A DNA stretch of 64,000 bases from Promethearchaeota archaeon (GTDB lineage Archaea; Asgardarchaeota; Lokiarchaeia; Sigyniarchaeales; SOKP01). The notes under the pieces were generated by a model. It was not told where the DNA came from. It searched no databases and was given only the letters and a program-made list of their open reading frames with translations. Shown in pieces: positions 15,929 to 40,819 of the stretch. The position numbers were made by a program, and so were the translations under genes. The stretch is taken from assembly GCA_048940925.1 (NCBI GenBank), contig JBHLOC010000009.1:45867-109866 (forward strand), given 5' to 3'. Position 1 is the stretch's first letter. The number at the start of each line of letters is the position of its first letter.

Positions 15929-16558
15929 ATGATTAATTCAGATCAGACGATATCAGTGAATTTCATTTGTCCTTATTGCAAAGAAAGTTTTAAAAAGCAA
16001 ATAGAGTATGAGAAGAAGTCTGGTCTTTTTAATTTATTAATAAAAAATCATCCTAAAGGAGAAAATTGTCCTCCCTTTATAGCGTTTATAGATAATAATG
16101 GAAGACATAGAGGATCTCAAAAGATTGATAATGTTGAGGTAGATAATTCACAAAATGAACAATTGCTCGAAGATGCTCAAAGTAAAATTGATGAATTAGA
16201 TAAGACTGTAAGATTTTACCATTTGAAGGTACCGAGGAGAGGAGGAAGAGGATTTGAACACAAAGTTTCAAACGTGCAGGATAGAGCATTCATGAGTTCA
16301 AAATTTTATTCTCAACTTATAGAATTTTTAACTGAAACTGAGAGTATCAATACTTTTGGAACAATTAACGTTAATACTGATACTTACTTTGAAGATGGTG
16401 TATTAATTTATGGAAAGTATCTCGGAATGGCTTACACTATCTATTGGAAAGATCAAAAAACGATACAAAGCAAAAATCTTGAAGAACTAAAGGCTCATGC
16501 TAATCTAACTGTAGAAAAATTGTTAGATATTTATGATTTAATAGATTTCTTTTTTTAA
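15929..16558 (+). CDS. Hypothetical protein with N-terminal zinc-ribbon-like domain
   Basis: CPYC...C..FIAFIDNNGRHRGSQKID, the same module as in 28360..28899. Confidence 0.6.
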   Translation: MINSDQTISVNFICPYCKESFKKQIEYEKKSGLFNLLIKNHPKGENCPPFIAFIDNNGRHRGSQKIDNVEVDNSQNEQLLEDAQSKIDELDKTVRFYHLKVPRRGGRGFEHKVSNVQDRAFMSSKFYSQLIEFLTETESINTFGTINVNTDTYFEDGVLIYGKYLGMAYTIYWKDQKTIQSKNLEELKAHANLTVEKLLDIYDLIDFFF

Positions 16559-19042: not shown

Positions 19043-20197
19043 ATGTATCTAACTGGATTAATCAGAAAAGAATTTGGCAGAATCAAATCAGATAAAAGGA
19101 CGTTAATTCTATTATTCATTATCCCTGTAATTTTGATTCTTGTTTTCGGTTTAACTACAGGAGGGGGACCAACAAAATTTTTTGTAGGAGCTATTATAAC
19201 TCGTGATTCCATGCCAACTTATGATGATTTTCCATCTAATTCTTCTAAATACGATAGTACCTTCATTTCAATAATGCAAAATCAAACTTCAACATGGGAT
19301 CTATATACGTATTATAATTCAACTTCTTTAGAAGAATATAATACTGCATATCACAATTGTTATGAAATTTTAAGAAGGGGTGATATTGATGTAATCATTA
19401 TTTTACCAGAAAATTTCTCAGAATCAGTCGAAAATAAAACGAATCCCGTTTTAATTTATCATATCGATGGATCTGATTTCCAAGCTATATCAGCATTTGA
19501 AATAGCTATTCAAGAACCGATCGCTTTATTTAGAACTCAAACAGATATGATAGCTAATTTTACGATTATGGTTCCTTATTTAGAATTTGATGTACCTTTT
19601 TGGGAGTCAGCTATTCTGAATTATGCAATCCCGATCATCTTACCTATAATAATTATAGGAACTACTATGAATTTAACTTCACTCTCAATAGTTTCTGAAG
19701 CACCACTCCCTCGGATGCTAATAACTCCAACTGCTAAAAGAGAGATAATTTTAAGTAAATTAATTGCAAATTCGATAATTATGTTGCTTCAATCAACTGA
19801 AATTTTTGTAATGACCGCTTTTTTTGGATTATACAGTTTAGGTTCATTGTTTTATTTCTTTTTAGTATTAATTATGATAGGGTTTAGTGGTGTTTGCATT
19901 GGATTATTTATTTCAGCCTTAAGTCCTACAGAACAAAGTGCAAATCAAATGTATTTAATTATGTTCTTAGTAATACTTCTCTTTTCAGGAAGTCTCCTTC
20001 CATTGGGTAATCCTCAGGGAGCATTACTAATTTTTATGAATCTACTCCCATTATCTAATGCTATACCAATGATAACAGATATAACTCTAAAAGGATTATC
20101 ACCAAATTTGATAAGCCTGTTTTGGCTTAACTTTAGTTCTTTGATGTATGTCACCTTAGCTTATATTATCTATATGTTTAAGAAATTGGAGGTGTGA
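19043..20197 (+). CDS. ABC-2 type exporter permease
   Basis: KEFGRIKSDKR, TM, extracytoplasmic loop, then 5 TM; LITPTAKREIILSK. Confidence 0.88.
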   Translation: MYLTGLIRKEFGRIKSDKRTLILLFIIPVILILVFGLTTGGGPTKFFVGAIITRDSMPTYDDFPSNSSKYDSTFISIMQNQTSTWDLYTYYNSTSLEEYNTAYHNCYEILRRGDIDVIIILPENFSESVENKTNPVLIYHIDGSDFQAISAFEIAIQEPIALFRTQTDMIANFTIMVPYLEFDVPFWESAILNYAIPIILPIIIIGTTMNLTSLSIVSEAPLPRMLITPTAKREIILSKLIANSIIMLLQSTEIFVMTAFFGLYSLGSLFYFFLVLIMIGFSGVCIGLFISALSPTEQSANQMYLIMFLVILLFSGSLLPLGNPQGALLIFMNLLPLSNAIPMITDITLKGLSPNLISLFWLNFSSLMYVTLAYIIYMFKKLEV

Positions 20198-20198
20198 C

Positions 20199-21476
20199 AT
20201 GAAAAAATCGCAGAAAAGATCTTTAAAGCCTAATTTAAAAAAATTCAAAAATAAAATTCCAAGATTAAAACCTGATTCTAAAAAAATAGTTAGCAAAATA
20301 TCAGGCTTAAAAAATAATACTTATAGAATCTTAAAACAAATTAAGAAAGAGTTTAGGCTTTTATGGACAGATAAATTCAATTTATTTCTAGCAATTGTGA
20401 TGCCTCCTTTAATAATTATATTGTTAGGTTTTACAATGACAGATGTCCCTCAAGAAGCACATGCACTTCCCTGTATAGTAATATCTTATGATTCTAATAC
20501 ATTTATCAATCAAAATGACTTTACAGAATCAAAATTAGATAATTATACTATGCCTTACGTGGAAGCTGTGAATAAGTCAAAAATGCTTGATTTAGTTCGA
20601 TTTTATAATGCAACAGAAGAGATTTATGCTATGGAAGAGGCTAGAAATGAATTATTAGCAGGAACTATCAATGTTATCATATCATTACCTATTGATTTTA
20701 CTGAGTTCCTAGAATGGGGGTTACCTGGTTTGATTGATTGTGTTCCTGATTCCTCAAATATTCAATATATTCAACAAAACCTTAATTCAGTCTATGACTC
20801 AATCAAAATATTCATACATGACAATAATCTTACTCCACAATTTATAGTTCGAGGTTTTGAAGAATTTACCATACCTAAGAGATATAGCAGAAATTTCAAC
20901 ACTAGTATGATTATGGCTCTCTCTTTTATGGTTTTTGGTATTGCTTTAGTTTTATCTATTTTAGTAATTGTCCAAGAGAAACCAATAGCACGACTCTTAC
21001 TTACACCTATAAAGAGAACAGATATTTTGCTTTCTAAATATATAACTTATACTCTTGTATTGTTATTTCAGGTTACTCTTTTAATAATCAGTAGCTTATC
21101 TATGGGCTTATATATAGCTGGTACTGTTGCAGACTTATTTCTGGCTTTATTTATGATAGGATTTTCTGGATTAACTATGGGTGTCTTTATTAGTTCACAG
21201 AGTAAAACAAAAACTCAGGCTAACCAATTATTTCTTGCGATTTTTCTTGTTGCTGTTTTATTAAGTGGTATATTCATTCCTATTGAAAATATGCCTCCAT
21301 ATTTACAGGTTATTGCATACATTCTGCCATTATCTCATGGAGATCCGTTAATTCGTGGAATACTTCAAAAAGGTCAGTCTATATTAGGACTCCACTTCTT
21401 TTGGTTATTAGCAATTAGTGTAGTGTTAATAGGGTTTACATTTATAATATTTAAAAGAAGAAAATATGAGGTGTAG
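20199..21476 (+). CDS. ABC-2 type exporter permease
   Basis: KEFRLLWTDK, RLLLTPIKRTDILLSK, LSGIFIPIENMP. Confidence 0.88.
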   Translation: MKKSQKRSLKPNLKKFKNKIPRLKPDSKKIVSKISGLKNNTYRILKQIKKEFRLLWTDKFNLFLAIVMPPLIIILLGFTMTDVPQEAHALPCIVISYDSNTFINQNDFTESKLDNYTMPYVEAVNKSKMLDLVRFYNATEEIYAMEEARNELLAGTINVIISLPIDFTEFLEWGLPGLIDCVPDSSNIQYIQQNLNSVYDSIKIFIHDNNLTPQFIVRGFEEFTIPKRYSRNFNTSMIMALSFMVFGIALVLSILVIVQEKPIARLLLTPIKRTDILLSKYITYTLVLLFQVTLLIISSLSMGLYIAGTVADLFLALFMIGFSGLTMGVFISSQSKTKTQANQLFLAIFLVAVLLSGIFIPIENMPPYLQVIAYILPLSHGDPLIRGILQKGQSILGLHFFWLLAISVVLIGFTFIIFKRRKYEV

Positions 21477-21509
21477 AAAAAAATAAGTAAAATAAAATCA
21501 AAGAAAAGA

Positions 21510-22502
21510 ATGGTTGACGTAAATAATTTAAATGTAAAATTTGGTGAAAAACATGTTGTTCATGATGTTTCCTTTGTTGTCAATGAGGGAGAGATAATCG
21601 GACTTTTTGGAATCTCAGGAGCTGGAAAAACAACTATAGTAAGAGTCATGACTTGTCAAATCGAAAAAAAGAATTGGAATGGAATGGTTAAGGTAACCGG
21701 GTTATCTCCTGAAAAGAAAAGAAACCATGCTCAGATTCTTAGCAATATTGGATATGTTCCCCAACTCGAATTATTGAATTTATATTTTGAATTAGATCCA
21801 ATGGTAAATGTAGAAGTCTTTACCTCTACATATGGAATGAATAAACAAAAAGCAAAAGAAACTGCAGAAAGGTTATTTAAAATTCTTGACATCCCTGAAG
21901 ACACTTGGAATAAGAGTGTTAAACGGATGAGTGGGGGAGAAAAAAAGCGGTTATCAATGGCTATCGGACTAATTCATAACCCCGATGTTCTATTTCTTGA
22001 TGAGCCAACAACGGGGGTTGATGCTTCAAAACGCTATGACATTTTAAGTTATTTAAAGAAATTAAACCAGAAATTGAATACAACAATGTTTATAATTACT
22101 CATGATTTGGAAGCCGCTTTAATATGTGATAAAGCTGCTATTTTAAGGGAAGGAAGACTATTAGAGTTTGATACTCCCCAAAACTTAATTTCATCTTTGC
22201 CAAGTGAAGGATTAATAGCAAGATTTACTATTGAAAATTTAAATGAAAGGATAATCGAATTTATTAGAAACTTTCCACCGATTAGAAGAATTATTAGGGT
22301 TGGAAATGAAGCAATTGAAGTTCTTATGGGGGATTTTGAAGAAAATCTTCCAAAATTAATTCAATATATGATTGAAAATAATATAATAGTTAAATCAATG
22401 AGTAAAGATACTGCTACTTTTCGAAGATATTTTCAAATACGGATTCAGCAGGAAGAAGAAAAAGAAGAAAATGCGGAAAAAGTAAGGGTGATTAAAAAAT
22501 AA
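21510..22502 (+). CDS. ABC transporter ATP-binding protein
   Basis: Walker A GISGAGKTT, signature MSGGEKKR, Walker B LFLDEPT, H-loop ITHD. Confidence 0.93.
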   Translation: MVDVNNLNVKFGEKHVVHDVSFVVNEGEIIGLFGISGAGKTTIVRVMTCQIEKKNWNGMVKVTGLSPEKKRNHAQILSNIGYVPQLELLNLYFELDPMVNVEVFTSTYGMNKQKAKETAERLFKILDIPEDTWNKSVKRMSGGEKKRLSMAIGLIHNPDVLFLDEPTTGVDASKRYDILSYLKKLNQKLNTTMFIITHDLEAALICDKAAILREGRLLEFDTPQNLISSLPSEGLIARFTIENLNERIIEFIRNFPPIRRIIRVGNEAIEVLMGDFEENLPKLIQYMIENNIIVKSMSKDTATFRRYFQIRIQQEEEKEENAEKVRVIKK

Positions 22503-22528
22503 TAACACTGAGCCGTAAAAACAAACGA

Positions 22529-25500
22529 TTGCTGAAAATCATTTTAGTGCTGGTTATTATAGTTGGCATTCCTAGCCTTGCTTTAATTTTAGTGAATATT
22601 CGCTATATATCATATATAGATGAAGATGAGGTTCATTCTATAAAAGATAATGCTGCATTTTTTGCATGGAGCCATCAAAATGACGAGGGGTTATTTATTG
22701 AGCCTAAATTAGAACAAAATTTTAGAGCAATTGACTCGATAAACTTCTCTATTGCTGTGGAATATTTTTCCAATTTGGTAAATCCTAACAATATTTCAAA
22801 TGAATATGTAAGGAAATTAAGACCAAATATCTTTTTTGATTATATATTTGAAAAGCAAAACTATGATGGATCATATTCTGATTTTGGAGGACTTGGTAGT
22901 ATGATCTCTACGCATCAAGCAATAAAAACTATTGAAATTGCCAATAAATCATATTTGAATCGTAAGATTCAACAAAATAAAACAGAGAATATTGTAAATT
23001 ATTTAAATAATTCCTTGAAAGAAAATGGAGAAGGATTCAAGTCAATATCCTACTTGAATGAGTCTGATATAATTTCTACTTCTTGTGCAATTGAGTTAGC
23101 AAATACTTTGAATGCGGGTTTTGTTCTCAAGAATCCAAACATTTCTAAATATATTAATGCTACTTGGCTTAGTGGTAGCTATAAATTGACGGATGATGAT
23201 TTGAGTATAGCTACAACAGAAACCACATATTATGGAATAAAGGCATTCTTAGGTATGAATATGACATATACAACTTTAGAGCGAACAGCAATTCAGATAT
23301 ATTTTAGCTCACTTTATAACATTATAGAAGGGGGATTTTCGAATATTCCTGGTGGGAGTTCTACAGTAGAATCAACATATTATGTATTATCCTCATTAAA
23401 CTCATTAAATCTATCATTTCCTTTCTTTGATGAAAATAAAACCTTAGAATTTATTATTAATTGTTCTAACTCAGATGGAGGTTTTGGTTCACGTCCGGGA
23501 TCAGAATATGCTTCAGATTTTACGCCTGGATGGGCTGCAATAAAATCAATTGAGATCCTTAATAAAGAAAACTTAATAAATAATTTTGACACAATTAAGA
23601 AGATATTAAGATATTATGAATGGCTTCATATGTTTCAAGGGAAAAATGCTTTATTTGGTCGTACTACAATTGAAGCTAATTTTTATGGAGTATCAGCTCT
23701 TTACAAGTATAATAAGGTATATATTGACGAAGATTTTATTACAAAAGATACCTTAGAGCATATTTTGCTCTTTGTTGACCAATGTTATAATCAATATGAA
23801 GGTGGTTTTGCATCCACTCCAGGAGAAAACGCAACTCTATATGCAACCTATTGTGGGGTGAATATTTACAATATGCTTTATCCCTCTACTAACAAAATGT
23901 TGGATGAATTTAAAATTGGGAATATAACAAATTATTTGGTTGAGCTCCAGAATTCTGATGGTGGTTTTAAGATCGGGGGTGACGTGGATGTATTATTATC
24001 AATGTATGGTCCATTTCATCAAGTTTTCTTGTATTTTATTAATTCCAACATTTCTACTATGGAAAGCACATATTGGGGGTTATATTCTCTTAATATTCTT
24101 GATGGATTAGCTTTAATTGATAATGTTAATCTGACTCATTGGTTGAGATCATGTCAGAATCCTGATGGAGGATTTTCGATATTTGTGGGATTTCATAGTG
24201 ATGTGATTTCAACTTATTTTGCATTAGAGATATTTTCAAAATTATTAAATTCTGAACCAATGTCAAAAATAGATTCAATCAAATTTCTGAAAAACGCACA
24301 GACTTCTGATGGCTCATTTTCAGTTTTACCTGCCCTTGGAGCCTATTTAGGATTGCCCTCAACATTTTTAGTAACTTATTTTGGTTCAAAAGGTCTTTAT
24401 GATTATAGATTTCAACCAGAAAATATTAGAAATACTTTGAATTGGTTTACTGAATGTATAAGTTCAAATACAGGAGGGGTTGGAGACAATCCAGGATTTG
24501 GAGGAGATCTAAGAAATACTGCTAACGGCATTATTATCATAGATGAATTACAATATGATCGGAGTTTTGATTCTAAACCATGGACTCAGTTATTAATCTA
24601 TATTTTATTTATAGAAGCTGCGGGAATTGCTTTATTTATCATCTTCAAATTGTACCAAAGACTTTCAATTCCTCAGAGAATTAAATTTTTATTAGGAATT
24701 GGTGGAAAACTTAATAGAGCTTATTTAGAAAAATATCCAGCTATTAATTGTGAAAATCTAAGTGTCTTTGCAGGGGGGAAATTAATAGTGGATTCAGTTT
24801 CTATGAATGTAGAGCATGGAAAAATATTAGGAATTTTAGGAGAGAGTGGAGCTGGTAAATCCACTTTCATTAAAGGTTTACTGGGTATGAGAAAAATTAT
24901 AGGTTTTTGTCAAATTTATGGAATGGATATGAATAGAAGAATATCAAGAAGAATCAGACCTATCTATGGTTACGTTCCTCAGGATTTAGGTAAAATATAT
25001 CACAATTTTACTACGCTGGAAAACTTATTATACTTTGGAAATCAATATGGGCTTACCGAGAAAGAAATAATAAGTAAATCTAAAAGAATTTTGCGTAGCT
25101 TAGAAATTGAAGATAAAATGAATGAATTAGTCAAAAATTTATCAGGAGGACAAAAAAGACGTGTTAGTATCGCTATTGGGTTAATTCATTCACCAATGTT
25201 CTTGATATGTGACGAGCCGACCTCGGGTCTTGATCCTGTGGTCAGGGAACATCTATGGCTAGTATTAACAAAGATTAATGAACAGTTTAACACCACATTA
25301 GTAGTTATAACACATTATCCGGAAGAATCAAGATTTTGTAATCTTGTTGCAATATTTGGTCGAAAACGCGGAATGATAGATTTTGGAGAGCCCAAAATGC
25401 TTTTAGGTAATTTACCAGGAAAAGGCAGATCAATTGAAATAGTATTTACCGATATACAAGAGAATATGATAGAAAGACTTGAGGCGATTGATGGAATCGA

Positions 25501-25690
25501 TAAAGTTTTAGAAAACAAAGCAGGTACAGATTTTTCAATATTTACTAATTTAAATATTGATAATCTGGTTGATAAAATTGAAGAAGAGATAGGGAAAGGT
25601 TTAATTAAAGAAATAAATCAAATTGATTCTAAAATGGAACAATATTTCCGCTATAAAGCAATGGAGGTGCCTAAAGTTGAAGAACTCTAG
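22529..25690 (+). CDS. Fusion: TM + prenyltransferase/squalene-cyclase repeat barrel + TM + ABC ATPase
   Basis: Repeated QNxDGGF-type motifs (QNYDGSY, CSNSDGGF, QNSDGGF, CQNPDGGF, QTSDGSF) between two TM helices. Intact GESGAGKST, LSGGQ, DEPTSGLD and ITH. Confidence 0.85.
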   Translation: MLKIILVLVIIVGIPSLALILVNIRYISYIDEDEVHSIKDNAAFFAWSHQNDEGLFIEPKLEQNFRAIDSINFSIAVEYFSNLVNPNNISNEYVRKLRPNIFFDYIFEKQNYDGSYSDFGGLGSMISTHQAIKTIEIANKSYLNRKIQQNKTENIVNYLNNSLKENGEGFKSISYLNESDIISTSCAIELANTLNAGFVLKNPNISKYINATWLSGSYKLTDDDLSIATTETTYYGIKAFLGMNMTYTTLERTAIQIYFSSLYNIIEGGFSNIPGGSSTVESTYYVLSSLNSLNLSFPFFDENKTLEFIINCSNSDGGFGSRPGSEYASDFTPGWAAIKSIEILNKENLINNFDTIKKILRYYEWLHMFQGKNALFGRTTIEANFYGVSALYKYNKVYIDEDFITKDTLEHILLFVDQCYNQYEGGFASTPGENATLYATYCGVNIYNMLYPSTNKMLDEFKIGNITNYLVELQNSDGGFKIGGDVDVLLSMYGPFHQVFLYFINSNISTMESTYWGLYSLNILDGLALIDNVNLTHWLRSCQNPDGGFSIFVGFHSDVISTYFALEIFSKLLNSEPMSKIDSIKFLKNAQTSDGSFSVLPALGAYLGLPSTFLVTYFGSKGLYDYRFQPENIRNTLNWFTECISSNTGGVGDNPGFGGDLRNTANGIIIIDELQYDRSFDSKPWTQLLIYILFIEAAGIALFIIFKLYQRLSIPQRIKFLLGIGGKLNRAYLEKYPAINCENLSVFAGGKLIVDSVSMNVEHGKILGILGESGAGKSTFIKGLLGMRKIIGFCQIYGMDMNRRISRRIRPIYGYVPQDLGKIYHNFTTLENLLYFGNQYGLTEKEIISKSKRILRSLEIEDKMNELVKNLSGGQKRRVSIAIGLIHSPMFLICDEPTSGLDPVVREHLWLVLTKINEQFNTTLVVITHYPEESRFCNLVAIFGRKRGMIDFGEPKMLLGNLPGKGRSIEIVFTDIQENMIERLEAIDGIDKVLENKAGTDFSIFTNLNIDNLVDKIEEEIGKGLIKEINQIDSKMEQYFRYKAMEVPKVEEL

Positions 25691-27422
25691 TGCTTTAAAA
25701 AGAGCTAAATTATTAAAAGAACATCGCAATATTGAATTGGAGCGCCTAAGATTAAAAATTTTAGACGCGATTAGGTTTTCCAGACGTTTTTGGATGACGT
25801 ATAGAGAAAATACTTTTGGTATCGCATCAATTTTGAACTTGATTTATAAAAAATCATTTTTTGAAGTATTATTTTTTACCAATAAAGATGTTATGGAAAA
25901 AGGGGTGCCACTATTAAAAATCTATACCCCAATAGAAGATGAAATTGATTTTAATGAACTTATTGTAGAACCTGATTTTGATGATGATGGTCTCGTTAGT
26001 CCAAGTAAAATTATCGGCCGTATGAGGAAATTAATTCGAAGAGAATTTCAAAAACATCTAGCTCTTCTAGACAATGAGGCGAATTTAATTGATGAAAGAT
26101 TTGAAAATTATATTATCGATAATAATCCCTATCATAGAGAGATAAGAATATCTTATCCCTATTTTGTTATAGAACTAAAGGTAAATTTTGAAAATTATCC
26201 CCTTGTCCCGTCATTGACATTTTCAAAAACCCTTTTAAAAGTTTTAAAAGAAAGAGAATTAAACGAAGAAGAAATTATTAAAAGTTGGAATGAAGTAAAT
26301 CCACCCCATATTTATCAATTAATCGAAAAATTATGTGAACTTGTATCAAGACGTCTTAAAATTGATCAACTAAATGAAGATTCTCAATATTTAGTCATAA
26401 ACAACCTATCTATTGATGAAAGTATTAAGAATGTTTCATTTAAAATCCATAAAGGCAAATCAATAGGGATCATTTTTGAAGATGAACACTTGAAGAATGT
26501 CAGTCATGATTATGATATTTTAAATTTGTTTCAAGTTATTTCTGGTAGTTATTCTGATTTCTCTGGAACTGTTGAAATATTTGGAATACCTATTCAATCA
26601 TTAGGTAAAAAGGAAAAAAAGAGTATTTTTATTTTACCTCAAGCATATGAATCGAAAATCCTAAATATGAAAATTAAGAAGGCAATCCATTATGGTATAG
26701 ATATTAAAGAAATTATTAAACAGAAAAAATCTATTATAAACCAAATTTTAAAACAAGCAGGAATTACACCTAAATTAGATGAAGTTATGAGTGATTTATT
26801 TGCAAAAGCAGTGATGAGAATGATTTTCAAAAAAAGAGCTTTTATTAATAGTGCTTTAGAAGATACAGGATTATTAAATAAAAAAAATAAAAAATTTTCA
26901 AGAGTAACACAATTAGAATTTCTCTTATTTTCAATTGGAAGAGCTTTACTTCAATCACCCTCCATAATTATGTTTTTAATACCATTAATAATTTTAGATC
27001 GACTTGAATATGAAAAATTTAATAATTATATAGAGAAAATTAAAAAAGAATTCCGTGTGATCCTATTATTTCATGGTCCTGAAGGAATAGTATCCAATTG
27101 TGATCAGATATTGACTATTAGGAAAGATGAATCTAAAATTGGAACATATAATAGATTAATAGAAGAATTACCTCAATCAGGAGAGATAATAACAATTGAA
27201 TTGAATAACCCTGATCGAAATTTGATAAAAAAACTTTTTAAATTTGAGGAAATAGCTAAAATCAAAGAAGAAAGAAAGAATGAAAAATATAAATTATTTT
27301 TAAAGTCTGACCCAAATAAGATGGTAATTCGAATAATAGAATTATTTGGGCAATATCTCTATAGTTTTAAAAGACATAAAGCCTCTTTGGGGGATTATTT
27401 GGAATTTTTTGAAGGTACATAA
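25677..27422 (+). CDS. UBC/RWD-like domain fused to a degenerate ABC ATPase-like domain
   Basis: TTG start after GGAGGTG. ELKVNFENYPLVPSLTF...SWNEVNPPHIYQLIEKL is UBC/RWD-like. The ABC scaffold remains (NVSFKIHKGKSIGI, IGRALLQSPSII) but Walker A, signature and Walker B are lost. Confidence 0.6.
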   Translation: MKNSSALKRAKLLKEHRNIELERLRLKILDAIRFSRRFWMTYRENTFGIASILNLIYKKSFFEVLFFTNKDVMEKGVPLLKIYTPIEDEIDFNELIVEPDFDDDGLVSPSKIIGRMRKLIRREFQKHLALLDNEANLIDERFENYIIDNNPYHREIRISYPYFVIELKVNFENYPLVPSLTFSKTLLKVLKERELNEEEIIKSWNEVNPPHIYQLIEKLCELVSRRLKIDQLNEDSQYLVINNLSIDESIKNVSFKIHKGKSIGIIFEDEHLKNVSHDYDILNLFQVISGSYSDFSGTVEIFGIPIQSLGKKEKKSIFILPQAYESKILNMKIKKAIHYGIDIKEIIKQKKSIINQILKQAGITPKLDEVMSDLFAKAVMRMIFKKRAFINSALEDTGLLNKKNKKFSRVTQLEFLLFSIGRALLQSPSIIMFLIPLIILDRLEYEKFNNYIEKIKKEFRVILLFHGPEGIVSNCDQILTIRKDESKIGTYNRLIEELPQSGEIITIELNNPDRNLIKKLFKFEEIAKIKEERKNEKYKLFLKSDPNKMVIRIIELFGQYLYSFKRHKASLGDYLEFFEGT

Positions 27423-27459
27423 AAATTAAATAGAAATTATATAAAAAAAGTTATGAATT

Positions 27460-28263
27460 ATGATAAAAAGTTTATATATCTTGGATGAGAATGGAATCTT
27501 ACTATATTCCAAAAATTACATGGAAAAAAATTATGATCAAAATATATTAATTGGTTTTTTCTCATCAATATCTAATTTTAGTAGAGAAGCATTGGGGACT
27601 ATAGTAAGAAATGTTGATCTAGGGGAGAATAATAAACTTATTTTAGTACCAAATATAGAAGAGAGAATTCTGGGAGCCGCTATAGTAAGTGCTAATGATA
27701 ATAACGCACTTGTTAGACTCATACTTACTAATATTTTGCAAGATTTTATCGATACATTTTCACCTGATTATGATCCGGATCTAATTTTCCCTGAAGATAT
27801 GGATACGATTATTAATAATAATTTGAAAAGGAAAACCATGCTATCCCCAAGGATAAGATTAATATTATCTTGGTCGATCGCAGGGCCTTTATCTTACTTT
27901 TTGATTTTATTAAGTATAAATGTAACCTATTTTATTTACGATCTTTTTCGATTAAATAGATTCATTAATCCTGACCAATTGTTTACAAGATTTATGCCCT
28001 ATTTAATATTATTATCTACAGCAAATATAATTATTTTATTTTTGCTACCAAATTTAATTTTAGGATTTTTAGCTTCAACTTGGAGAATTGCTCTTTTAAA
28101 CTCTTTCATCTACTTTGCTATAACTATTACGCTATATTTTTATTCAGTAGCACCTAATTTCGCATACATTATTGTTGGGCATTTACCACTAACCTTAATA
28201 TTTTCCCTGTTTTTTCTTTTTGTTGGTATGAGGTATTCATCGAAGAAATTCTTAAAGGACTAA
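27460..28263 (+). CDS. Longin-domain membrane protein (about 4 TM)
   Basis: MIKSLYILDENGILLYSKNY...LIGFFSSISNFSRE is an Asgard longin pattern, followed by hydrophobic helices. Confidence 0.75.
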   Translation: MIKSLYILDENGILLYSKNYMEKNYDQNILIGFFSSISNFSREALGTIVRNVDLGENNKLILVPNIEERILGAAIVSANDNNALVRLILTNILQDFIDTFSPDYDPDLIFPEDMDTIINNNLKRKTMLSPRIRLILSWSIAGPLSYFLILLSINVTYFIYDLFRLNRFINPDQLFTRFMPYLILLSTANIIILFLLPNLILGFLASTWRIALLNSFIYFAITITLYFYSVAPNFAYIIVGHLPLTLIFSLFFLFVGMRYSSKKFLKD

Positions 28264-28359: not shown

Positions 28360-28899
28360 ATGGTTGTTTATTGTAAAACCAATAAAGTCCAGATAGTTTG
28401 TCCAATCTGCAATACAAGAGATATTATTGGTATTCCAGAAAGAGAAATAAAAAAGAATAACCATTTAACCACGGTTTCAATCCATAAAGGATTATTATGT
28501 CCTCATCATTTTCAAGTCTTTGTAGATAAGAATTTTCAAATTCGTGGATACCAAAAAGTAGATTTTGAACTAAATCAAGAAAATTCAATAAAATTAAGAA
28601 ATGGCGTAAAAGCTTTCAATAATAAAGAAAAAGATAATTCAAATTCATTTGAAGAAATATCTCTTGAAGGTAATAATATTAACTATTATCCCCTAAATAA
28701 CATTAATAGTAGAGAGGATAATGATTTAGACCAAAAAACTAAAAATAGCAATAAGCAAATGAGTTTAAGAGAAATTTATGAAGAATTCTGGGAATTTATT
28801 GATGATGATAATAAAATATTTCGAAAGTTTATTATAAAAGATAAAAAACGAAGAGAAACTTCAAAATATCTTGATTTCCACAAATTATTAATCGCTTAG
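28360..28899 (+). CDS. Hypothetical protein with zinc-ribbon-like domain
   Basis: CPIC...CPHHFQVFVDKNFQIRGYQKVD. Confidence 0.65.
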   Translation: MVVYCKTNKVQIVCPICNTRDIIGIPEREIKKNNHLTTVSIHKGLLCPHHFQVFVDKNFQIRGYQKVDFELNQENSIKLRNGVKAFNNKEKDNSNSFEEISLEGNNINYYPLNNINSREDNDLDQKTKNSNKQMSLREIYEEFWEFIDDDNKIFRKFIIKDKKRRETSKYLDFHKLLIA

Positions 28900-30723: not shown

Positions 30724-32240
30724 ATGAGCTATAAATTACCGGATGAAAAAGATCTGGAAGCCATGATAGGCATTGTTGGTAAGGAATACGCTTCAAATAA
30801 CAAAGCAATTACAGCATCGTACCTGGCGAAATCAGTGATGGGTTTAGAAATCAATTATCCCAAAGCGGGTAATGACTAAATAGCCAAATCCCTGATATCG
30901 TCGTTCGACCAAAATACGTTGAAGAAATTCGTAAAATTCTTGTATACTGTTCTCAAGAAAAAATAGCAGTAAGCCCTGTTTCTGGTGGATTATCTGGCGG
31001 ATTCTCGTGCCCAACAATAAAACCTGGTGGAGTTCTTCTTGATTTAGGAAGAATGAAAAGAATAATTGAAATTGATGAAGAAAATCGATTTGCAATTGTA
31101 GAACCTGGAGTAACTATTGGAGAACTGTGGGCATATATGCATAAGAATACTCCTGACTGGGCACCACCAATACCAGATGGAGCTCCACCAGCATCTACAG
31201 TTATGGGAGATGCCATTGATAGGGGGTTTTCATTATACACATCTAGTGTAGGGCCCCAGGGAGACAACTTTATGTGCGCTGAAGTTGTGTTTGCAAATGG
31301 TGACGTTTTAAGGACTGGCTCATGGGCATTACCAACTGCGAAACCATTCTATAAATATGGACTTGGTCCTGATTTATGGTCTTTTTTGATGGGTAGTCAA
31401 GGAACTATGGGCGTAATCACAAAAGTAGCTGTAAAGATTTATCCACATCCCGAATTTAAAACAGTAGTTGTGTGGGGCATGTCAAATCCTTATGATATGC
31501 AGAATCTAACATTGGAAATCCAAAAACAGGAATTTGGAATAGCACATAATGCAGTTATGGTACAAGGCGGGAATTATCCTTTAGTAATGACTCGATGGCC
31601 AAAGGATAAGGTTCCTCATGATTATAAGTTTTATGAAGAGATGGGAATCAGCCAATGGTGGATGAATTTTGAATGCTGGGCTCAAACACAAGAAGAATTA
31701 GACTATGTAATAAAAAGAATTGATGAGATGGGAAATGATTATAAAAAGAATAGAGCTAAAGACCCTGACTCAATAGTACCTCAGAAACTTCATCCAAAAC
31801 AAATAGCAAGCAGATTAAAAAAGCCAAATAAAATTGCTGTTCCGTATGGTCTATGGGATGCGGGATTTTTATTTATTACATGGTATACTCCCTGGCCAGA
31901 ATGTGCCCATTTTTGTGAAATGTATTGTGCCGCAATGGAGAAATATGGTTTTCCTCCTACGATGTGGGTTGCTTCAATTGAACGTGGTCGACAAGCAATT
32001 TGTATGCCGATTGTGTGTTTCGATAGCACAAAGCCTGAAGAATTAGAAAGAGTTCAAGAATTGAATAGAGAAACTACTGAATATGGTCTAAAGCAAGGAT
32101 GGCTTAACTACAGACCTGATCCATACATTCATATTAAAGCCTATTACCAATCAGGAATGTATTGGAAATACTTGCGAGCAATTAAAAAAATATTAGATCC
32201 AAATGGAATATTGCATCCAGGAAGACTTGCTCTTCCATAA
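30724..32240 (+). CDS. FAD-binding oxidoreductase (GlcD/VAO family), split: exon1 30724-30849 + exon2 30882-32240, 494 aa joined
   Basis: Exon1 is MSYKLPDEKDLEAMIGIVGKEYASNNKAITASYLAKSVMGLE. Exon2 is SQIPDIVVRPK...GGVLLDLGRM, running in frame into ORF 31053..32240 (VEPGVT, GPDL, GSQGTMG, DPNGILHPG). Confidence 0.88.
30850..30881 (+). other. Putative 32-nt bulge-helix-bulge mRNA intron
   Basis: Central helix TTAG(30844-47)/CTAA(30876-79); 3-nt bulges AAA(30848-50) and ATA(30880-82); stems on both sides; removal restores the frame. Confidence 0.82.
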
Positions 32241-33913: not shown

Positions 33914-35410
33914 ATGAAAAAAAAAAAAGTAATTCCAATTATAGCGTTAGTGATTATTGCTGCCTTAGTTATTACTTTAGTCATACTTTTTATTCCATTT
34001 GGAGGACCCCCTACACCAAGTGCTAGAAAAGCAATTATAGTCAGTAGTGCGAACGATTTTCAAAAAAGTGAGGGGGAAGATGATTTCAATGATAGTGATG
34101 ATGCAAATTTTAGTGCTGAATCAGGAAGATGGATTGAGAATGCCACTAATGGATATATAGGACAGGATAATGATCTTGGTCCTGATGGTAATCCAGGTAT
34201 TGTAAAATTAATTGCTAATGTTTTCCCAGATCCAACTGGTTATACCCACATTGAATATGTATATAATTGGACAAAATATTATCCAATTTACACATATGCT
34301 ATATACAATCTTTCTGCTTGGGTGAAAATATTAAATCAAACGGGAAATGCAACCTATATAGGTTCACCAGGAGCTAGAATAGGATTACGATGGTTAAATT
34401 CCAATAATAGTATAATAAGAACGGATTGGTCTAAAGGAATAATTGATACGGAAGGAACATGGGTATATTTAAATATTACAGGTATATGTGATGGTTCTAC
34501 TATCAATAAAATAACTCAGCTGCATTTAGTTTTAGCTTTTGAGGGTAATGTAAGTCAAGGTGATATGGTGTGGTATGATGATGTGAGAGTTGAGCGATGG
34601 ATTTCGGTTAATGTAACAAATCCTATAAATCCGATTCCTCCTCCAGGTAGCATAGATTCAGATGGATTTCCTGCACAAGCCCTCCAAGTTTATTGGATCT
34701 TGAAGCATCACGGGTATTCCGATAAGAATATATTTTTAATGTTGTATCATAAAAATGATAATATAATTGATATAAATGCGAAAGATGGTATAACAAACGA
34801 TTTAACAGGGGCTATTATTGATGTGGAGAATGACGATGTTAAAGCTAGTAGATTCAAACAAGAATTAAATGTTTCAATCAAGGGGTCATTTGCTTCCAGT
34901 ATCAAGGCAAAAGATCAATTGATAATTTATGTGGTAGATCATGGATCGAATAAGATAGCTGGTGAGGGTAATGCTACCTTTCATTTTGAAGCAGATGATA
35001 GTTACATCACTGAAACAGAATTTTATAATTTAGTCAAAGAAATTGATTGTGAACGTATGCTGATTAATATTGATATCTGTTTCAGTGGTAATTTTTTAAA
35101 TATAAATTCAAACATAGGACAAAGTTGGTATGATATACCTAATTCAATTCTCATCACTTCAACTACAGATATTTTCTCTTGGTATTGGCGTGATAATAGT
35201 AATCCTGATGGTTTTGCAGGTTCTTGGTTCTTTCATACATTTTGGGATCAATTAAATCAGAGTGAATCGATACAGGAGGCATTTGATTATGCTAAGAATT
35301 ATATTCCCGCAAGACAAAAGATTCCTATTATTCAAATACAAAGCCCTTTAATAAAAGATAATTTAGGAATTAAAGACTCTTGGAGTTTTAGTAGCATTCC
35401 TCAATTGTAG
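33914..35410 (+). CDS. Membrane-anchored clan CD (C13 legumain/GPI8-like) cysteine peptidase with inserted CBM-like domain
   Basis: N-terminal TM; YWILKHHGYSDKNIFLM; catalytic-type VVDHG and IDICFSG; jelly-roll insert (YNLSAWVK...VWYDDVRV). Confidence 0.72.
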   Translation: MKKKKVIPIIALVIIAALVITLVILFIPFGGPPTPSARKAIIVSSANDFQKSEGEDDFNDSDDANFSAESGRWIENATNGYIGQDNDLGPDGNPGIVKLIANVFPDPTGYTHIEYVYNWTKYYPIYTYAIYNLSAWVKILNQTGNATYIGSPGARIGLRWLNSNNSIIRTDWSKGIIDTEGTWVYLNITGICDGSTINKITQLHLVLAFEGNVSQGDMVWYDDVRVERWISVNVTNPINPIPPPGSIDSDGFPAQALQVYWILKHHGYSDKNIFLMLYHKNDNIIDINAKDGITNDLTGAIIDVENDDVKASRFKQELNVSIKGSFASSIKAKDQLIIYVVDHGSNKIAGEGNATFHFEADDSYITETEFYNLVKEIDCERMLINIDICFSGNFLNINSNIGQSWYDIPNSILITSTTDIFSWYWRDNSNPDGFAGSWFFHTFWDQLNQSESIQEAFDYAKNYIPARQKIPIIQIQSPLIKDNLGIKDSWSFSSIPQL

Positions 35411-36418: not shown

Positions 36419-39400
36419 TTGGCTAATGTGCAACAGAAATCTGCTTATCCATATATTACTGAATTCAAAAAAGAACCTTTCATTTCTTTTATTTTTATCA
36501 AACAAAAAGATATTGGGAACATTTATTTAAGTAACTATAATGAACTAATTAAGTTCTACGAATTTTTTAAGGATAACTTATTAAGTGCTTCAAATTTAAC
36601 ACTAGAAAATATTTTTTGGTTTTTATTATTAAAAAAATATCTCAAAAATAAAAAGAAGATAAAGAAGGATGCAATTTTTAATTTCATTAAGAAATGCGAA
36701 ATTCATCAAAATGAAAGATTAGGCTTTAAACTATCTTCTAATATACAAAAAATCCCTGATATCTACTCAACATATTTAGCATTAGCGTGTTTGAAAAATT
36801 TGGGATTTTTAGAAGAGTATTTGTCCTCTGAAAATATTAAGTCAGATATTAAAAACTTTATTTTATCACATGAAAAGAAAAATGCTTTTAAGCACTGTCA
36901 TAATGAGCAATGTGCTATATGTAAAAAAATCTCGCCTGCAAGAACCTTATTTTTTGTACTTGAAATTTTCACACTTATAGGAATTGATGTGCGTTTAAAA
37001 AGAGATCAATTTATGGCGTTTTTTAATGATAATAGTAAAAAAGGTTATGGTTTGATTTTTAAATTACTTTGCCAAAAATATTTAGATTTAGATTCTGAGG
37101 TTAAGGAAAAGGAAGTCCAATATCTTTATCAATTTCAAAATGAAAGTGGTGGTTTTAGTTTAAATCATCTTGGAGTTATTAATGACACTTTTTGGATTGT
37201 ATATGTTCTTAACTTATATTCATGGTTTTTGGATTATAATCCTGCTGGAATATTTCCCTTTATCAATAATAAATTAAATGAGATTCTGATGAGTCAACCA
37301 AATTGGAATGCTTTCAAATTAAATGATGTATCAAAGTTAATAATTCTTTTATCATTTATTTGGAAAAAGTTTATTGACTCCGTAGAAAGAACATTATTTA
37401 AGCAAATTGAGAAGGATAAATATATTGATTTAATTCAATTAAAAACTACTTTTGGTTTATTTAACGATGTTGAAGATATTTTATCATATATTAATCTTAA
37501 CTATAATTTTAAATTAAGAATTTTAGATAATAAAATCGAATTTAATAATTTTCTAAGAAATTTAAGTCAAGGAAGACAAGAATTCATTAAAGAATTTTAT
37601 GATCAAATTAATAAAAATAGTGTTGTTTCTCTTTCTGCGCTTCATAAGAAATATAAAACTTTAAACTATGAACCATTAAAACTGAGAGAAAATATCTTTC
37701 CTATTATTAAAGAAATGGTCAGGAGAAATTTTTTCAAAGGAAATATTAAAGCTAAGAAAAAATTTTTATCAAAAACAAGATTTCTTTTTTATTTGGATTA
37801 TATGTTAAAAAAAATAATCGTTTGTGACTCTGAGATTAATACTGAGAGAATTTTAGATGAAAAAGAGAAATTAACTGATATTAAGAATGATATCTACAAT
37901 ATGACTTTAAAATTGAAAAAAATTGATCTTCAAATAAAAGAAGAAATTGAGAGTTATCTTTTGATTAATGAATTTGACTACTCTAAACAAAGATTAAAAT
38001 TTATTATAAGAGATGCTTTAATGGAAGCTGATTTTTTAAATGAAAATATTGAAAATTCTTTTAATGAAATTTTATATTATATCAACTTTCAAGCAGTATT
38101 AAAGTCAGAGATTGCAGAATGGGAGCAGATTTATTCTATCTTACCAAAGAAGTTAGGAGAAATTGAAGCATATCTAAAAGGGAAAATACAAGAAAAAGAA
38201 GAGCTAAGAAATTTAAGTGTTGTTTTAGATAACTTAAAGGAAAAAATTATAATATTAGAAGAAGATTTAAATAAAAAGTTTGATATTTTTAGAAACATCT
38301 TTAGGGAAGTCTTAGAAAAAGAGTATAGTGATAAGAATTTTAATCTTATTATTAAAGAATTAGAAATATTAACTCAAAAAGTTAGAAAATATGATAGCTT
38401 AATTTATAAAGTCTCTCAACAAATAAAATCAAAAGAAAGGAAAATTGTTAAAAAACATAAGAAAGTAATTAATAACTGGATAAAAGTTAAAGAAAAATTC
38501 GAAAATGAGTTCAATTTTTACACAGATGGTTTTCAATTTTTTAATAAAAAATTAAATGAAATTAAAGATATAAAAGAAAGAGTTAATACTCATATTTCTG
38601 AAATTGGTGAAAATGCTAAAGTTAAAATTGATTCAAATCAATTTCAAGAAGCGTTTGGTTTTATTAAAAAAGAATCTGATTTATTATTAACTGAAAAAAT
38701 AAATGAAATTAAAGATCTTCATGGTATAATTAAAAATGAGATAAAGCAAAATCAAAAGCTCTTTATATTATATAAGCATTTACATGAAAAACTCAATGAT
38801 TTAGAGTCTTATATAATTGATTTGATTGCAAAACAGGTTCAAACCCTTAAGAATAAAGTCATAGAGGAGAGAAATAGAACTAAAATAGAGGTTTTTGATA
38901 ATTTAGCAAAACAAGAAATTCTCAAATTTAAATCCAAATTGACAGAGATCAGAAATTATTTTAACCAAATAGATGATTTAAAGATTGAGATTGTAATAAA
39001 AGAATGTGACTCTTTAAATTCAGATTTTGAAAAAGCTAGTAAATTATATTTGAAAAAATTAAGTGAATGTCAAAAAGAAATCGAAGATTTTGACGAGAAA
39101 TCAAAATTAACTATTATGCAATGGGAAAAATTTACTATTTTTTTTAATAATGAAATTTTGGTCTTGAAAGAAGATTTTATAAATAATATCATTGCAAACA
39201 AAGTTAGTTCCATGGTAATTGAGAAAAAAACGGATTGTATTGATCTTCTTGACCTTAAGAAGGAGTTAAAACTTTCATGTAAAGTATTGATTAATAAATT
39301 AAAAGATATTATTGATATTTCAAAAATAAATGCAAAACTTGATGAAGACGATAAATCACTCTTGGTTTTTACTGATTTCTATTACTCAAATAAAGAACTT

Positions 39401-40819
39401 AGGAATTACATTGATAATAATTTATTGAAGTTAAATAGAGAAAGAATTGGGAAGATTTTAGCGCTTTATGATTCAAGTATTAGAAATAGAACATTAAATA
39501 CAAACATGCTTGAACTTCAAAATCGAATTAAAGATTTACAGATATTTAAAGAAATTATTCCGAAACAATTTTATGATAAATTGGAAGAATTAGGAATAGA
39601 TAAAGAAAGAAAAGAATTTATTGATACAAAAAAATACTTTGATTTTACTTTAGAAAATGATGAATTAGCGATTAAATCCATAAAAAACAACTTAGATCTT
39701 TTTAATAATATGCAAAATTACATCGAAAAAAAATATAATTCGCTTAGAGTTGAATTAAAAGAATTCTTAAACAAATTTCAAAAGGAATCTGAAAGAACAG
39801 ATTCCTTTTTTGAGGTGGAAAAGAAACTTAAAAATAGGAAAGAATATTTTAAAGAGAAATTAAACCAATCAAAAGGTGTTATTGAGGAGGAAATTAAAAA
39901 GTTATCCAATAAGACTAATGAATCAGAAAAATTAATTCCTGAAATTAGAGAATTTTTTGTTAAAAGAAAAAACACTTTCTTAAATGAATATAACAATAAA
40001 ATTGAAAATGTTAATGAGCAATTTGAGCTTTTAAGAAATGAATCTTTCCGTGAGAAATTATTAGTATTTATTAATAATAAAAAAATTCATTTAAGCCAAT
40101 TACTCGGTAATTTAGAAAGAAAAGTTGAAGATAACATCGAAATTAAGGAATTTAAAAAAATCAATGTGATAATTCAAAATAGAGCAAAAAACATTGAAAT
40201 GGAGATAAAAGAAATAAATAGATCTGCGAAGGATAAGATTAAAGAATTTAACAGACAATCTAAAAACTTTAGTCAAATCTCTAAATTTATTTTAGAAGAT
40301 TTTGATAAATTTGTAAATGAATATACAGAAATTCTAAATGAAAAAGTTAAATCATTGGAAAGATTGTTTCTAAAAGCCTATATTGAAATGGCAATCAAAG
40401 CAGTAGCAAATGAATACTTAACTATTGGATTTCTAAATAATGAATTAAAGATTAAGAAGCAAAATATCCAAGATCATTTATTGTATTTAATAAGTGAAGG
40501 AGATTTGAATGGAAAATATGATCCTCGATTTGGGATTTATTATGAAAATCCAGAAGTTCTAAGTGATTTAGATGAAAAAGAACTTGAAGTGATTAAAAAT
40601 ACCAATTTTAAAGTCTATATGGCTCTTAATCGCTTAAAGAACTTCACCAGCCAATATTACACCATAATTGCATTTTTCACTTCTATAATAACAATAGCAT
40701 ATTATCTATTCCTTTTAAGTGGAGGAAATCCTGCTGTACTTGCCTTTCCAATAATATTGACAATTTTTGTAGTAGGTTATTACTTATTTAAAAAAAGAAA
40801 AGAAGAGAAAGTAAAGTAA
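36419..40819 (+). CDS. Large protein: prenyltransferase-like barrel, coiled coils, PCI/winged-helix domains, two C-terminal TM
   Basis: PDIYSTYLALACL and FQNESGGF repeats; PCI-like YLTIGFLNNELKI...LISEGDLNGKYDPRFGIYY; long K/E-rich heptads. Confidence 0.7.
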   Translation: MANVQQKSAYPYITEFKKEPFISFIFIKQKDIGNIYLSNYNELIKFYEFFKDNLLSASNLTLENIFWFLLLKKYLKNKKKIKKDAIFNFIKKCEIHQNERLGFKLSSNIQKIPDIYSTYLALACLKNLGFLEEYLSSENIKSDIKNFILSHEKKNAFKHCHNEQCAICKKISPARTLFFVLEIFTLIGIDVRLKRDQFMAFFNDNSKKGYGLIFKLLCQKYLDLDSEVKEKEVQYLYQFQNESGGFSLNHLGVINDTFWIVYVLNLYSWFLDYNPAGIFPFINNKLNEILMSQPNWNAFKLNDVSKLIILLSFIWKKFIDSVERTLFKQIEKDKYIDLIQLKTTFGLFNDVEDILSYINLNYNFKLRILDNKIEFNNFLRNLSQGRQEFIKEFYDQINKNSVVSLSALHKKYKTLNYEPLKLRENIFPIIKEMVRRNFFKGNIKAKKKFLSKTRFLFYLDYMLKKIIVCDSEINTERILDEKEKLTDIKNDIYNMTLKLKKIDLQIKEEIESYLLINEFDYSKQRLKFIIRDALMEADFLNENIENSFNEILYYINFQAVLKSEIAEWEQIYSILPKKLGEIEAYLKGKIQEKEELRNLSVVLDNLKEKIIILEEDLNKKFDIFRNIFREVLEKEYSDKNFNLIIKELEILTQKVRKYDSLIYKVSQQIKSKERKIVKKHKKVINNWIKVKEKFENEFNFYTDGFQFFNKKLNEIKDIKERVNTHISEIGENAKVKIDSNQFQEAFGFIKKESDLLLTEKINEIKDLHGIIKNEIKQNQKLFILYKHLHEKLNDLESYIIDLIAKQVQTLKNKVIEERNRTKIEVFDNLAKQEILKFKSKLTEIRNYFNQIDDLKIEIVIKECDSLNSDFEKASKLYLKKLSECQKEIEDFDEKSKLTIMQWEKFTIFFNNEILVLKEDFINNIIANKVSSMVIEKKTDCIDLLDLKKELKLSCKVLINKLKDIIDISKINAKLDEDDKSLLVFTDFYYSNKELRNYIDNNLLKLNRERIGKILALYDSSIRNRTLNTNMLELQNRIKDLQIFKEIIPKQFYDKLEELGIDKERKEFIDTKKYFDFTLENDELAIKSIKNNLDLFNNMQNYIEKKYNSLRVELKEFLNKFQKESERTDSFFEVEKKLKNRKEYFKEKLNQSKGVIEEEIKKLSNKTNESEKLIPEIREFFVKRKNTFLNEYNNKIENVNEQFELLRNESFREKLLVFINNKKIHLSQLLGNLERKVEDNIEIKEFKKINVIIQNRAKNIEMEIKEINRSAKDKIKEFNRQSKNFSQISKFILEDFDKFVNEYTEILNEKVKSLERLFLKAYIEMAIKAVANEYLTIGFLNNELKIKKQNIQDHLLYLISEGDLNGKYDPRFGIYYENPEVLSDLDEKELEVIKNTNFKVYMALNRLKNFTSQYYTIIAFFTSIITIAYYLFLLSGGNPAVLAFPIILTIFVVGYYLFKKRKEEKVK

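Follow-up and report, generated by a model that had tools for sequence, protein, structure and literature searches.

A conserved six-gene type V ABC transporter cassette in Lokiarchaeia with predicted prenyltransferase-fold, UBC/RWD-like, and longin-like modules

The window analyzed here is a 64,000-nucleotide stretch of a Promethearchaeota archaeon (class Lokiarchaeia; assembly GCA_048940925.1, contig JBHLOC010000009.1, positions 45,867 to 109,866, forward strand). It contains a cassette of six genes, g1 to g6, related to ATP-binding cassette (ABC) transporters (Table 1). All six open reading frames lie on the plus strand and are packed together, with intergenic gaps of 1, 33, 26, −14, and 37 nt. 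The initial annotation of this DNA had described a co-oriented, tightly packed six-gene operon and had not recognized it as a characterized system. Both statements are borne out: all six reading frames are present as described, no publication on the cassette was found, and no NCBIfam equivalog cutoff was reached. A literature search conducted mostly outside subscription journals returned no paper on an Asgard longin/ABC/RWD or prenyltransferase/ABC combination. The six-gene combination is real, conserved, and apparently undescribed.

Table 1. Features of the cassette and its surroundings, in window positions (aa, amino acids; res, residues; TM, transmembrane segment; R, regulatory; BHB, bulge-helix-bulge)
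Feature	Position	Strand	Description
g1	19043..20197	+	384 aa; ABC-2 (type V) permease A, extracellular loop following TM1; PF12698, E 4.5e-26
g2	20199..21476	+	425 aa; ABC-2 (type V) permease B; PF12698, E 1.8e-25
g3	21510..22502	+	330 aa; soluble intact DrrA-like ABC ATPase with C-terminal R domain
Empty g3 intron site	22012..22013	+	Inside the codon after Walker B DEPT; window g3 intronless
g4	22529..25690	+	1053 aa; TM1 (res 4-22), predicted extracytoplasmic double alpha6/alpha6 barrel (about 30-680), TM2 (688-706), intact ABC ATPase (738-957), R domain
g4 ectodomain	22616..24568	+	12 prenyltransferase-type repeats in two barrels; squalene-hopene cyclase-like layout
g5	25677..27422	+	581 aa, counted from the ATG of the protein record; tandem non-catalytic UBC/RWD-like domains (about res 14-125 and 126-232), degenerate ABC ATPase domain, R domain
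g6	27460..28263	+	267 aa; longin-like domain (res 1-122) and 3-4 TM helices (TM scan)
g7	28360..28899	+	Small Cys/His-motif protein of a multicopy family; excluded from the core
FAD-oxidoreductase intron	30850-30881	+	32-nt BHB in the GlcD-like gene at 30724-32240, downstream of the cassette

Gene-neighborhood conservation, which had been put forward as a check on the operon, was examined in related loci (labeled L) from metagenome-assembled genomes of Promethearchaeota (Lokiarchaeia), and distribution was surveyed across 301 genomes of the phylum. The order of g1 to g6 is kept in 34 loci, for the genes that each contig covers, far beyond chance. The order also persists in three distant contigs, where g4, g5, and g6 are just 24 to 30% identical, and orthologs of g2, g4, g5, and g6 are jointly absent from four genomes of the same genus with 97 to 100% completeness. 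Thus, the cassette behaves as one old, dispensable unit. The g5 gene is present in 36/68 other genomes of its own family and in one genome from each of two sister families, and it occurs as a dead ATPase without the N-terminal domain in 2/21 genomes of a family in another class. The profile of the g4 ectodomain recovers almost the same genomes (34/68 in its own family, 1/1 and 1/1 in the sister families, and 1/21 in the other-class family). Neither was found in the remaining families searched among the 301 genomes. Gene order is rearranged and g6 is missing in one sister family.

Some loci carry additional genes. In one genus, g4 and g5 are separated by a gene with multiple TM segments and a small soluble gene (L072:7689-9068, L075:11477-12940, and L077:7753-9073); the small soluble gene was judged by eye to be putatively longin-like. 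A second ATPase and a probable permease are inserted between g2 and g3 at L047:6495-8620, while L053:6784-8936 contains a 2-kb insert together with a duplication of the 5' end of g3.

The transport core was readily recognized by profile searches, as had been anticipated for two ABC-2 permeases and an active ATPase. Both g1 and g2 pass the Pfam cutoffs of ABC2_membrane_3, ABC2_membrane, and ABC2_membrane_2. Hydropathy analysis places 5 and 6 segments in the two permeases, which are each other's closest paralogs in the genome (33% identity). The only sequence matches of g2 in the PDB were to an insect "ABC transporter G family member 23-like" protein (8yzp/9ju6; E 3e-10), which we take to be an ABCH lipid exporter. 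ABC_tran is passed by g3 and by the C-terminal part of g4, and the best solved-structure matches of the ATPase by sequence are ABCA3 and ABCA1. The Walker A, Q-loop, signature, Walker B, and H-loop motifs are essentially invariant in g3 (32 copies) and g4 (47 copies). Mean identity to the window across relatives is 82% for the nucleotide-binding domain (NBD) of g3, 84% for that of g4, and 54% for that of g5; the two motors with intact motifs, g3 and g4, are thus strongly constrained. The C-terminal R domains of g3, g4, and g5 are mutually homologous. Against characterized families, g3 matches TIGR01188 below the cutoff (E 7e-56) and scores 189.7 against drrA, for which 312.45 is needed; its RbbA and NodI NCBIfam scores lie far under the curated cutoffs.

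The second motor, g4, carries a large ectodomain. The g4 body passes the Pfam Prenyltrans model (PF00432) with 127 bits (cutoff, 26.5; E 1e-36), and a structure model of the ectodomain with a predicted local distance difference test score (pLDDT) of 91.6 retrieved GGTase and FTase beta subunits (GGTase-I/II/III and FTase) as its best folds (Z 25.5-27.7). Glycosidases and TED domains score lower (Z about 15-18). The match to squalene-hopene cyclase (SHC) extends over 476 residues (Z 19.5; root mean square deviation, 8.2). Because single-barrel matches reach both ends of the model (residues 8-651), the second barrel is inserted after the first helix, as in SHC. Two clear TM segments flank the double barrel, and the count of lysine and arginine around TM2 is 3.9 after and 1.6 before the segment. 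Since the NBD has to lie in the cytoplasm and comes after TM2, the barrel of ∼650 residues would lie outside and is predicted to face the cell exterior. N-glycosylation sequons were considered as topology evidence and discarded: they are denser in the ectodomain (2.3 versus 1.1 per 100 amino acids), but their observed/expected ratio is not above that of the NBD.

The catalytic residues expected of this fold were not found in g4. The zinc ligands of the prenyltransferases (DxC in repeat 5 and His in repeat 6) are absent, and no DxC occurs at any inner-helix start of the 12 repeats. Repeats 5 and 6 instead read STVESTYY/SDFTPGWA and STFLVTYF/GDLRNTAN, in a repeat register taken from the sequence and alignment ranges rather than from coordinates. 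The DxDD motif is likewise absent from all 12 repeats, the equivalent repeat being [AS]TL[FY][AS]TYC. With both the zinc ligands and DxDD missing, the barrel is neither a canonical prenyltransferase nor a canonical cyclase, although it may bind a ligand similar to those of these enzymes. The "prenyltransferase-barrel/ATPase fusion" of the initial annotation therefore stands with respect to the fold and the intact ATPase but not with respect to enzyme identity, as the barrel is predicted to be outside the cell and lacks the catalytic motifs.

Ribophorin II (Swp1; PF05817) was matched weakly by one of ten g4 homologs (E 0.05), and RPN2 was not among the top 50 fold matches of the ectodomain. The genome also encodes a signal-/tail-anchored paralog with a single prenyltransferase-like barrel, a signal peptide, and a C-terminal TM segment (L111:3206-4297, minus strand; G000 contig C18); thus, outward-facing barrels of this type appear to be a wider Asgard theme. 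This paralog has a weak Ribophorin_II match of its own (E 2e-4, under the cutoff), and its gene adjoins an actin-like gene, with a longin-like gene two genes away. Within the window, a further Prenyltrans match is found at the N terminus of a 1466-amino-acid protein (36419-40819, plus strand).

In g5, all five nucleotide-binding and catalytic motifs listed above have been lost, distant copies included. Its structure model keeps the NBD fold and the C-terminal domain (Z about 20 to ABC ATPases). The first UBC/RWD-like repeat retains 77% mean identity to the window, above that of the g5 NBD (54%), which makes the N-terminal domain the most constrained part of the protein. The model contains an alpha-beta4-alpha domain at about residues 107-230, preceded by a low-confidence (low-pLDDT) domain with a similar strand pattern, and a YPxxP-type motif is present in the N-domain region. 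Direct Pfam and PDB sequence searches with the window g5 yielded no UBC, RWD, or UEV match. HHalign comparison of the g5 repeats to Asgard E2s gave scores that did not exceed those of shuffled columns, the match lists of fold searches with the complete g5 model were taken up by its NBD part, and a search of the ESM Atlas returned unnamed clusters only. A profile of the second repeat matches a multirepeat protein in the same genome (E 1.9e-20) that itself passes the UQ_con and RWD cutoffs; this protein also aligns with each of the two repeats in a distant g5. By transitive homology, the predicted placement of the g5 N-terminal domains in the UBC-like superfamily holds. Of the fusion proposed at the outset, the dead NBD was confirmed; the UBC/RWD assignment fails in direct Pfam searches and is recovered by the transitive route.

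The HPN motif and a conserved Cys are absent from g5 residues 1-235; true E2s with HPN and the catalytic Cys are encoded elsewhere in the same genome. The nearest relative of the g5 N-terminal domains is an Asgard protein of tandem UBC/RWD-like repeats (L109:1508-3130, minus strand, G000 contig C38; L108:94-1845, minus strand). Three g5 copies have in-frame insertions inside the second repeat (L069:9415-11271, L070:9447-11309, and L071:7362-9113), and a distant g5 carries a 200-amino-acid Lys/Pro/Ala-rich repeat extension at its N terminus (L144:3514-5760).

The last gene, g6, had been called a longin-TM protein. Its TM helices are evident, and the longin portion likewise fails a direct search: Pfam and PDB sequence searches with the window g6 gave no longin match. 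Transitive matches support it. A profile of the g6 N-terminal domain matches about 19 proteins in the genome, some of which match Fuz_longin_1 or Sybindin under the cutoff, and a distant g6 ortholog matches Fuz_longin_1 with an E value of 9.5e-4. Because these matches are only subthreshold and transitive, the longin assignment is likely but weaker than the UBC/RWD call. The TM bundle of g6 has no paralog in the genome.

Short introns interrupt g3 in some relatives and one gene downstream of the cassette. In 10/45 distinct g3 copies (L042, L043, L047, L053, L060, L061, L071, L074, L077, and L129), an insert of 31 to 34 nt occurs at a single site just after Walker B. Each insert forms a BHB, with a 4-bp helix between two 3-nt bulges, and the predicted cut restores DEPTTG. 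The central helix is fully paired (4/4) in 9/10 inserts, and the helix sequences differ yet pair. The exons of intron-bearing g3 copies are under purifying selection (ratio of nonsynonymous to synonymous substitution rates, 0.08-0.13), and the intron is scattered on the tree, requiring at least six gains or losses. These inserts are best described as BHB (EndA-type) introns that are predicted to be spliced. Two EndA homologs are encoded in the genome, and, in the papers searched, splicing inside an archaeal coding sequence has been documented for cbf5 (PMC2738675). Since most copies are without it, the g3 intron is not part of the operon design.

A similar element interrupts the GlcD-like oxidoreductase gene downstream of the cassette (Table 1). 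Its removal gives a 495-amino-acid frame that reads like intronless relatives, and 5 related loci have an insert at this site, whereas about 19 have none. Asgard E2 reading frames in L091, L092, and L100 diverge and stop at one point after "MMHVE," which is possibly another intron site. A genome-wide scan for BHBs by motif only gave no excess over a mirrored control (817 versus 830), and a candidate at 44210-44239 was rejected, as it joins two unrelated genes.

The gene following g6, g7, was not counted as core because its position varies in own-family relatives (3' of g6 or 5' of g1) and none was seen at distant loci. Its Cys/His-motif family has 8 matches in the genome, and another member lies at 15929-16558 (plus strand) of the window. 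Downstream, one gene contains a Loki-CTERM motif, in keeping with a Lokiarchaeia-type Asgard host, and a peptidase C13 (legumain/Gpi8 family) protein is encoded at 33914-35410 (plus strand), 5.6 kb from the cassette. A sigma-70 promoter/terminator scan performed at chance level and is unsuited to archaea.

Taken together, these features are most readily accommodated by a type V ABC exporter of lipid or lipid-linked cargo with three added subunits, a reading that we favor tentatively and hold somewhat short of even confidence. Paralogy and the type V architecture suggest that g1 and g2 would form a heterodimeric membrane channel, and the intact motifs of g3 and of the g4 ATPase domain are consistent with these two pairing as a heterodimeric motor. 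An archaeal lipid or lipid-linked cargo would be flopped or lifted out of the membrane. The g4 double barrel would sit outside, beside the exit, as a non-catalytic acceptor for hydrophobic, probably isoprenoid, cargo. Through its retained NBD fold and R domain, g5 would dock as a pseudo-ATPase adaptor, with its first UBC/RWD-like domain recruiting a partner, and g6 would be a membrane-anchored longin that localizes or tunes the complex. We infer a lipid or lipid-linked cargo because the solved structures nearest in sequence are those of ABCA3/ABCA1 for the ATPase and of the ABCG23-like insect transporter for the permease. The initial annotation had suggested lipid or isoprenoid export or surface modification. 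Lipid handling is plausible, while surface modification is weakened, as the g4 barrel is predicted to lie outside the cell and is without catalytic motifs. The longin- and ubiquitin-fold regulatory inputs that the annotation also proposed find no direct support, given the missing catalytic Cys of g5 and the lack of GTPase, ubiquitin, or E3 genes as conserved neighbors in the loci read.

Several points weigh against the exporter reading. Cargo, direction, and subunit contacts are all predicted from the genes, DrrA-like ATPases appear to match ABCA proteins in general, and the type V class also includes importers (PMC8386196). The modeled fold likeness of the g4 barrel is no proof of ligand binding. 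Polar residues are conserved around the SDxIST and DLRN motifs of the C-terminal barrel, and these might support non-canonical enzyme chemistry. In three loci, no permeases lie immediately upstream; two of the genomes concerned encode them at another place. Some distant loci (L065, L066, and L147) are without g6 or the g5 N-terminal domain.

A broader proposal is that the products of g1 to g6 assemble into a single complex, with UBC/RWD- and longin-fold adaptors linked to a type V core. Lipid export or sensing at the surface of the Asgard cell would then be localized or signaled via eukaryote-type trafficking and ubiquitin-fold modules. We regard this as speculative and, on balance, doubtful. 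If true, it would provide an archaeal case of a pseudo-ATPase acting as an adaptor between a transporter and eukaryote-type modules.

The alternatives to the exporter reading are each less probable. The cassette might be an importer or inward flippase, with the barrel capturing external isoprenoid or other lipids and handing them to the permeases for scavenging. An outside binding domain fits uptake, and ABCA4 is an example of a type V importer (PMC8386196). The cassette also adjoins genes for an acyl-CoA ligase, GlcD-like FAD/Fe-S oxidoreductases, and, in some genera, glycerol-3-phosphate dehydrogenase. However, these neighbors are not kept at distant loci and may thus reflect plain synteny. 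Most prokaryotic ABC-2 systems are exporters, and we consider import unlikely.

Similarly unlikely is a sensor or mechanotransducer with little or no net transport, in which the ATPase cycle would relay the binding of a ligand to the outer barrel into a cytoplasmic output via the g5 UBC/RWD-like domains and the longin. The third, dead NBD with its strongly conserved interaction domain and the receptor-like layout of g4 (ectodomain-TM-ATPase) would suit such a role. Bce-type and FtsEX-type systems set precedents for ABC signaling and mechanical work (PMC11466899), but these belong to type VII rather than type V. No kinase, GTPase, ubiquitin, or E3 gene is found among the conserved neighbors in the loci read.

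Slightly less credible again is an exporter whose barrel acts as an enzyme with non-canonical chemistry, modifying the exported substrate or transferring an isoprenoid to it, which corresponds to the surface-modification idea of the initial annotation. The SHC-like two-barrel layout and near-invariant D, R, N, and Y residues in the C-terminal barrel are compatible with catalysis; the Asp/Cys/His zinc ligands and the class II cyclase DxDD are missing at the equivalent repeats, and the cassette encodes no alpha subunit. Moreover, prenyl diphosphate donors are cytoplasmic. Finally, an ordinary exporter (g1-g2-g3) sharing nothing but regulation with a separate g4-g5-g6 complex is improbable. In its favor, at least two genomes have the permease pair at a place apart from g3-g6, and other genes are inserted between members in some genera. 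Against it, g3 stays with g4-g6 when the permeases, retained elsewhere, move, the intact g4 NBD has no other permease in the cassette, and every gene tested disappears along with the others.

For most "eukaryotic signature" domains of Asgard archaea, no function is known. The cassette would connect a prenyltransferase-fold barrel, a longin, and a pair of UBC/RWD-like domains with a single defined and ancient membrane machine, in which their archaeal role is testable. It would also present a new ABC layout, in which a single permease pair goes with three different NBD-type subunits, of which one is dead and another is tethered to a barrel outside the cell, and the g4 barrel would represent a prenyltransferase fold in non-catalytic, outward-facing use. 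Because its distribution is patchy (roughly half of one family and rare elsewhere), we make no claim of ancestry to any eukaryotic complex.

Each accessory module resembles known proteins in part. Like the longins (Asgard longins, Mon1/Ccz1/Fuz, the TRAPP sybindins, and longin SNAREs), g6 has a putative longin-like profile at its N terminus; unlike them, it continues into a bundle of 3 to 4 TM helices, and no SNARE motif or GTPase partner was identified. The alpha-beta4-alpha topology and YPxxP-type motif of g5 recall non-catalytic UBC-fold domains (UEV, RWD, and double RWD), but the g5 domains are fused to a dead ABC ATPase and pass no Pfam UBC, RWD, or UEV model. Prenyltransferase beta subunits (GGTase-I/II/III and FTase) share the alpha6/alpha6 barrel of g4, and SHC shares its two-barrel layout with the N-terminal helix in the C-terminal barrel. 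In contrast to these enzymes, the g4 barrel is predicted to be extracytoplasmic, is fused to an ATPase, and has no zinc ligands or DxDD, with no alpha subunit encoded in the cassette.

A precedent for the layout of g4 is TagGH, the teichoic-acid exporter of Bacillus subtilis, a type V system with an NBD that continues, through a fused TM helix, into an extracellular domain (PMC11466899). As in TagGH, the g4 NBD is joined to a TM helix and an ectodomain. Here, however, the ectodomain is a double barrel of 650 amino acids that lies N-terminal to the NBD and is anchored by two TM helices, and the cassette adds a second, free ATPase as well as a dead one.

The type V class was defined in PMC8386196. 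With type V exporters (DrrAB, LnrLMN, NatAB, and the YbhFSR/RbbA type, as well as eukaryotic ABCA, ABCG, and ABCH), the cassette shares an ABC-2 permease pair with an extracellular loop (PMC11466899, PMC8386196) and a DrrA-like NBD with a C-terminal regulatory domain; R domains occur in B. subtilis type V exporters and in ABCA (PMC11466899). It differs from them in having three different NBD-type subunits, one membrane tethered and one dead, in carrying barrel, UBC/RWD-like, and longin-like accessories, and in reaching no equivalog cutoff. The core is a type V transporter, and the cassette is an elaboration of that class rather than a new category.

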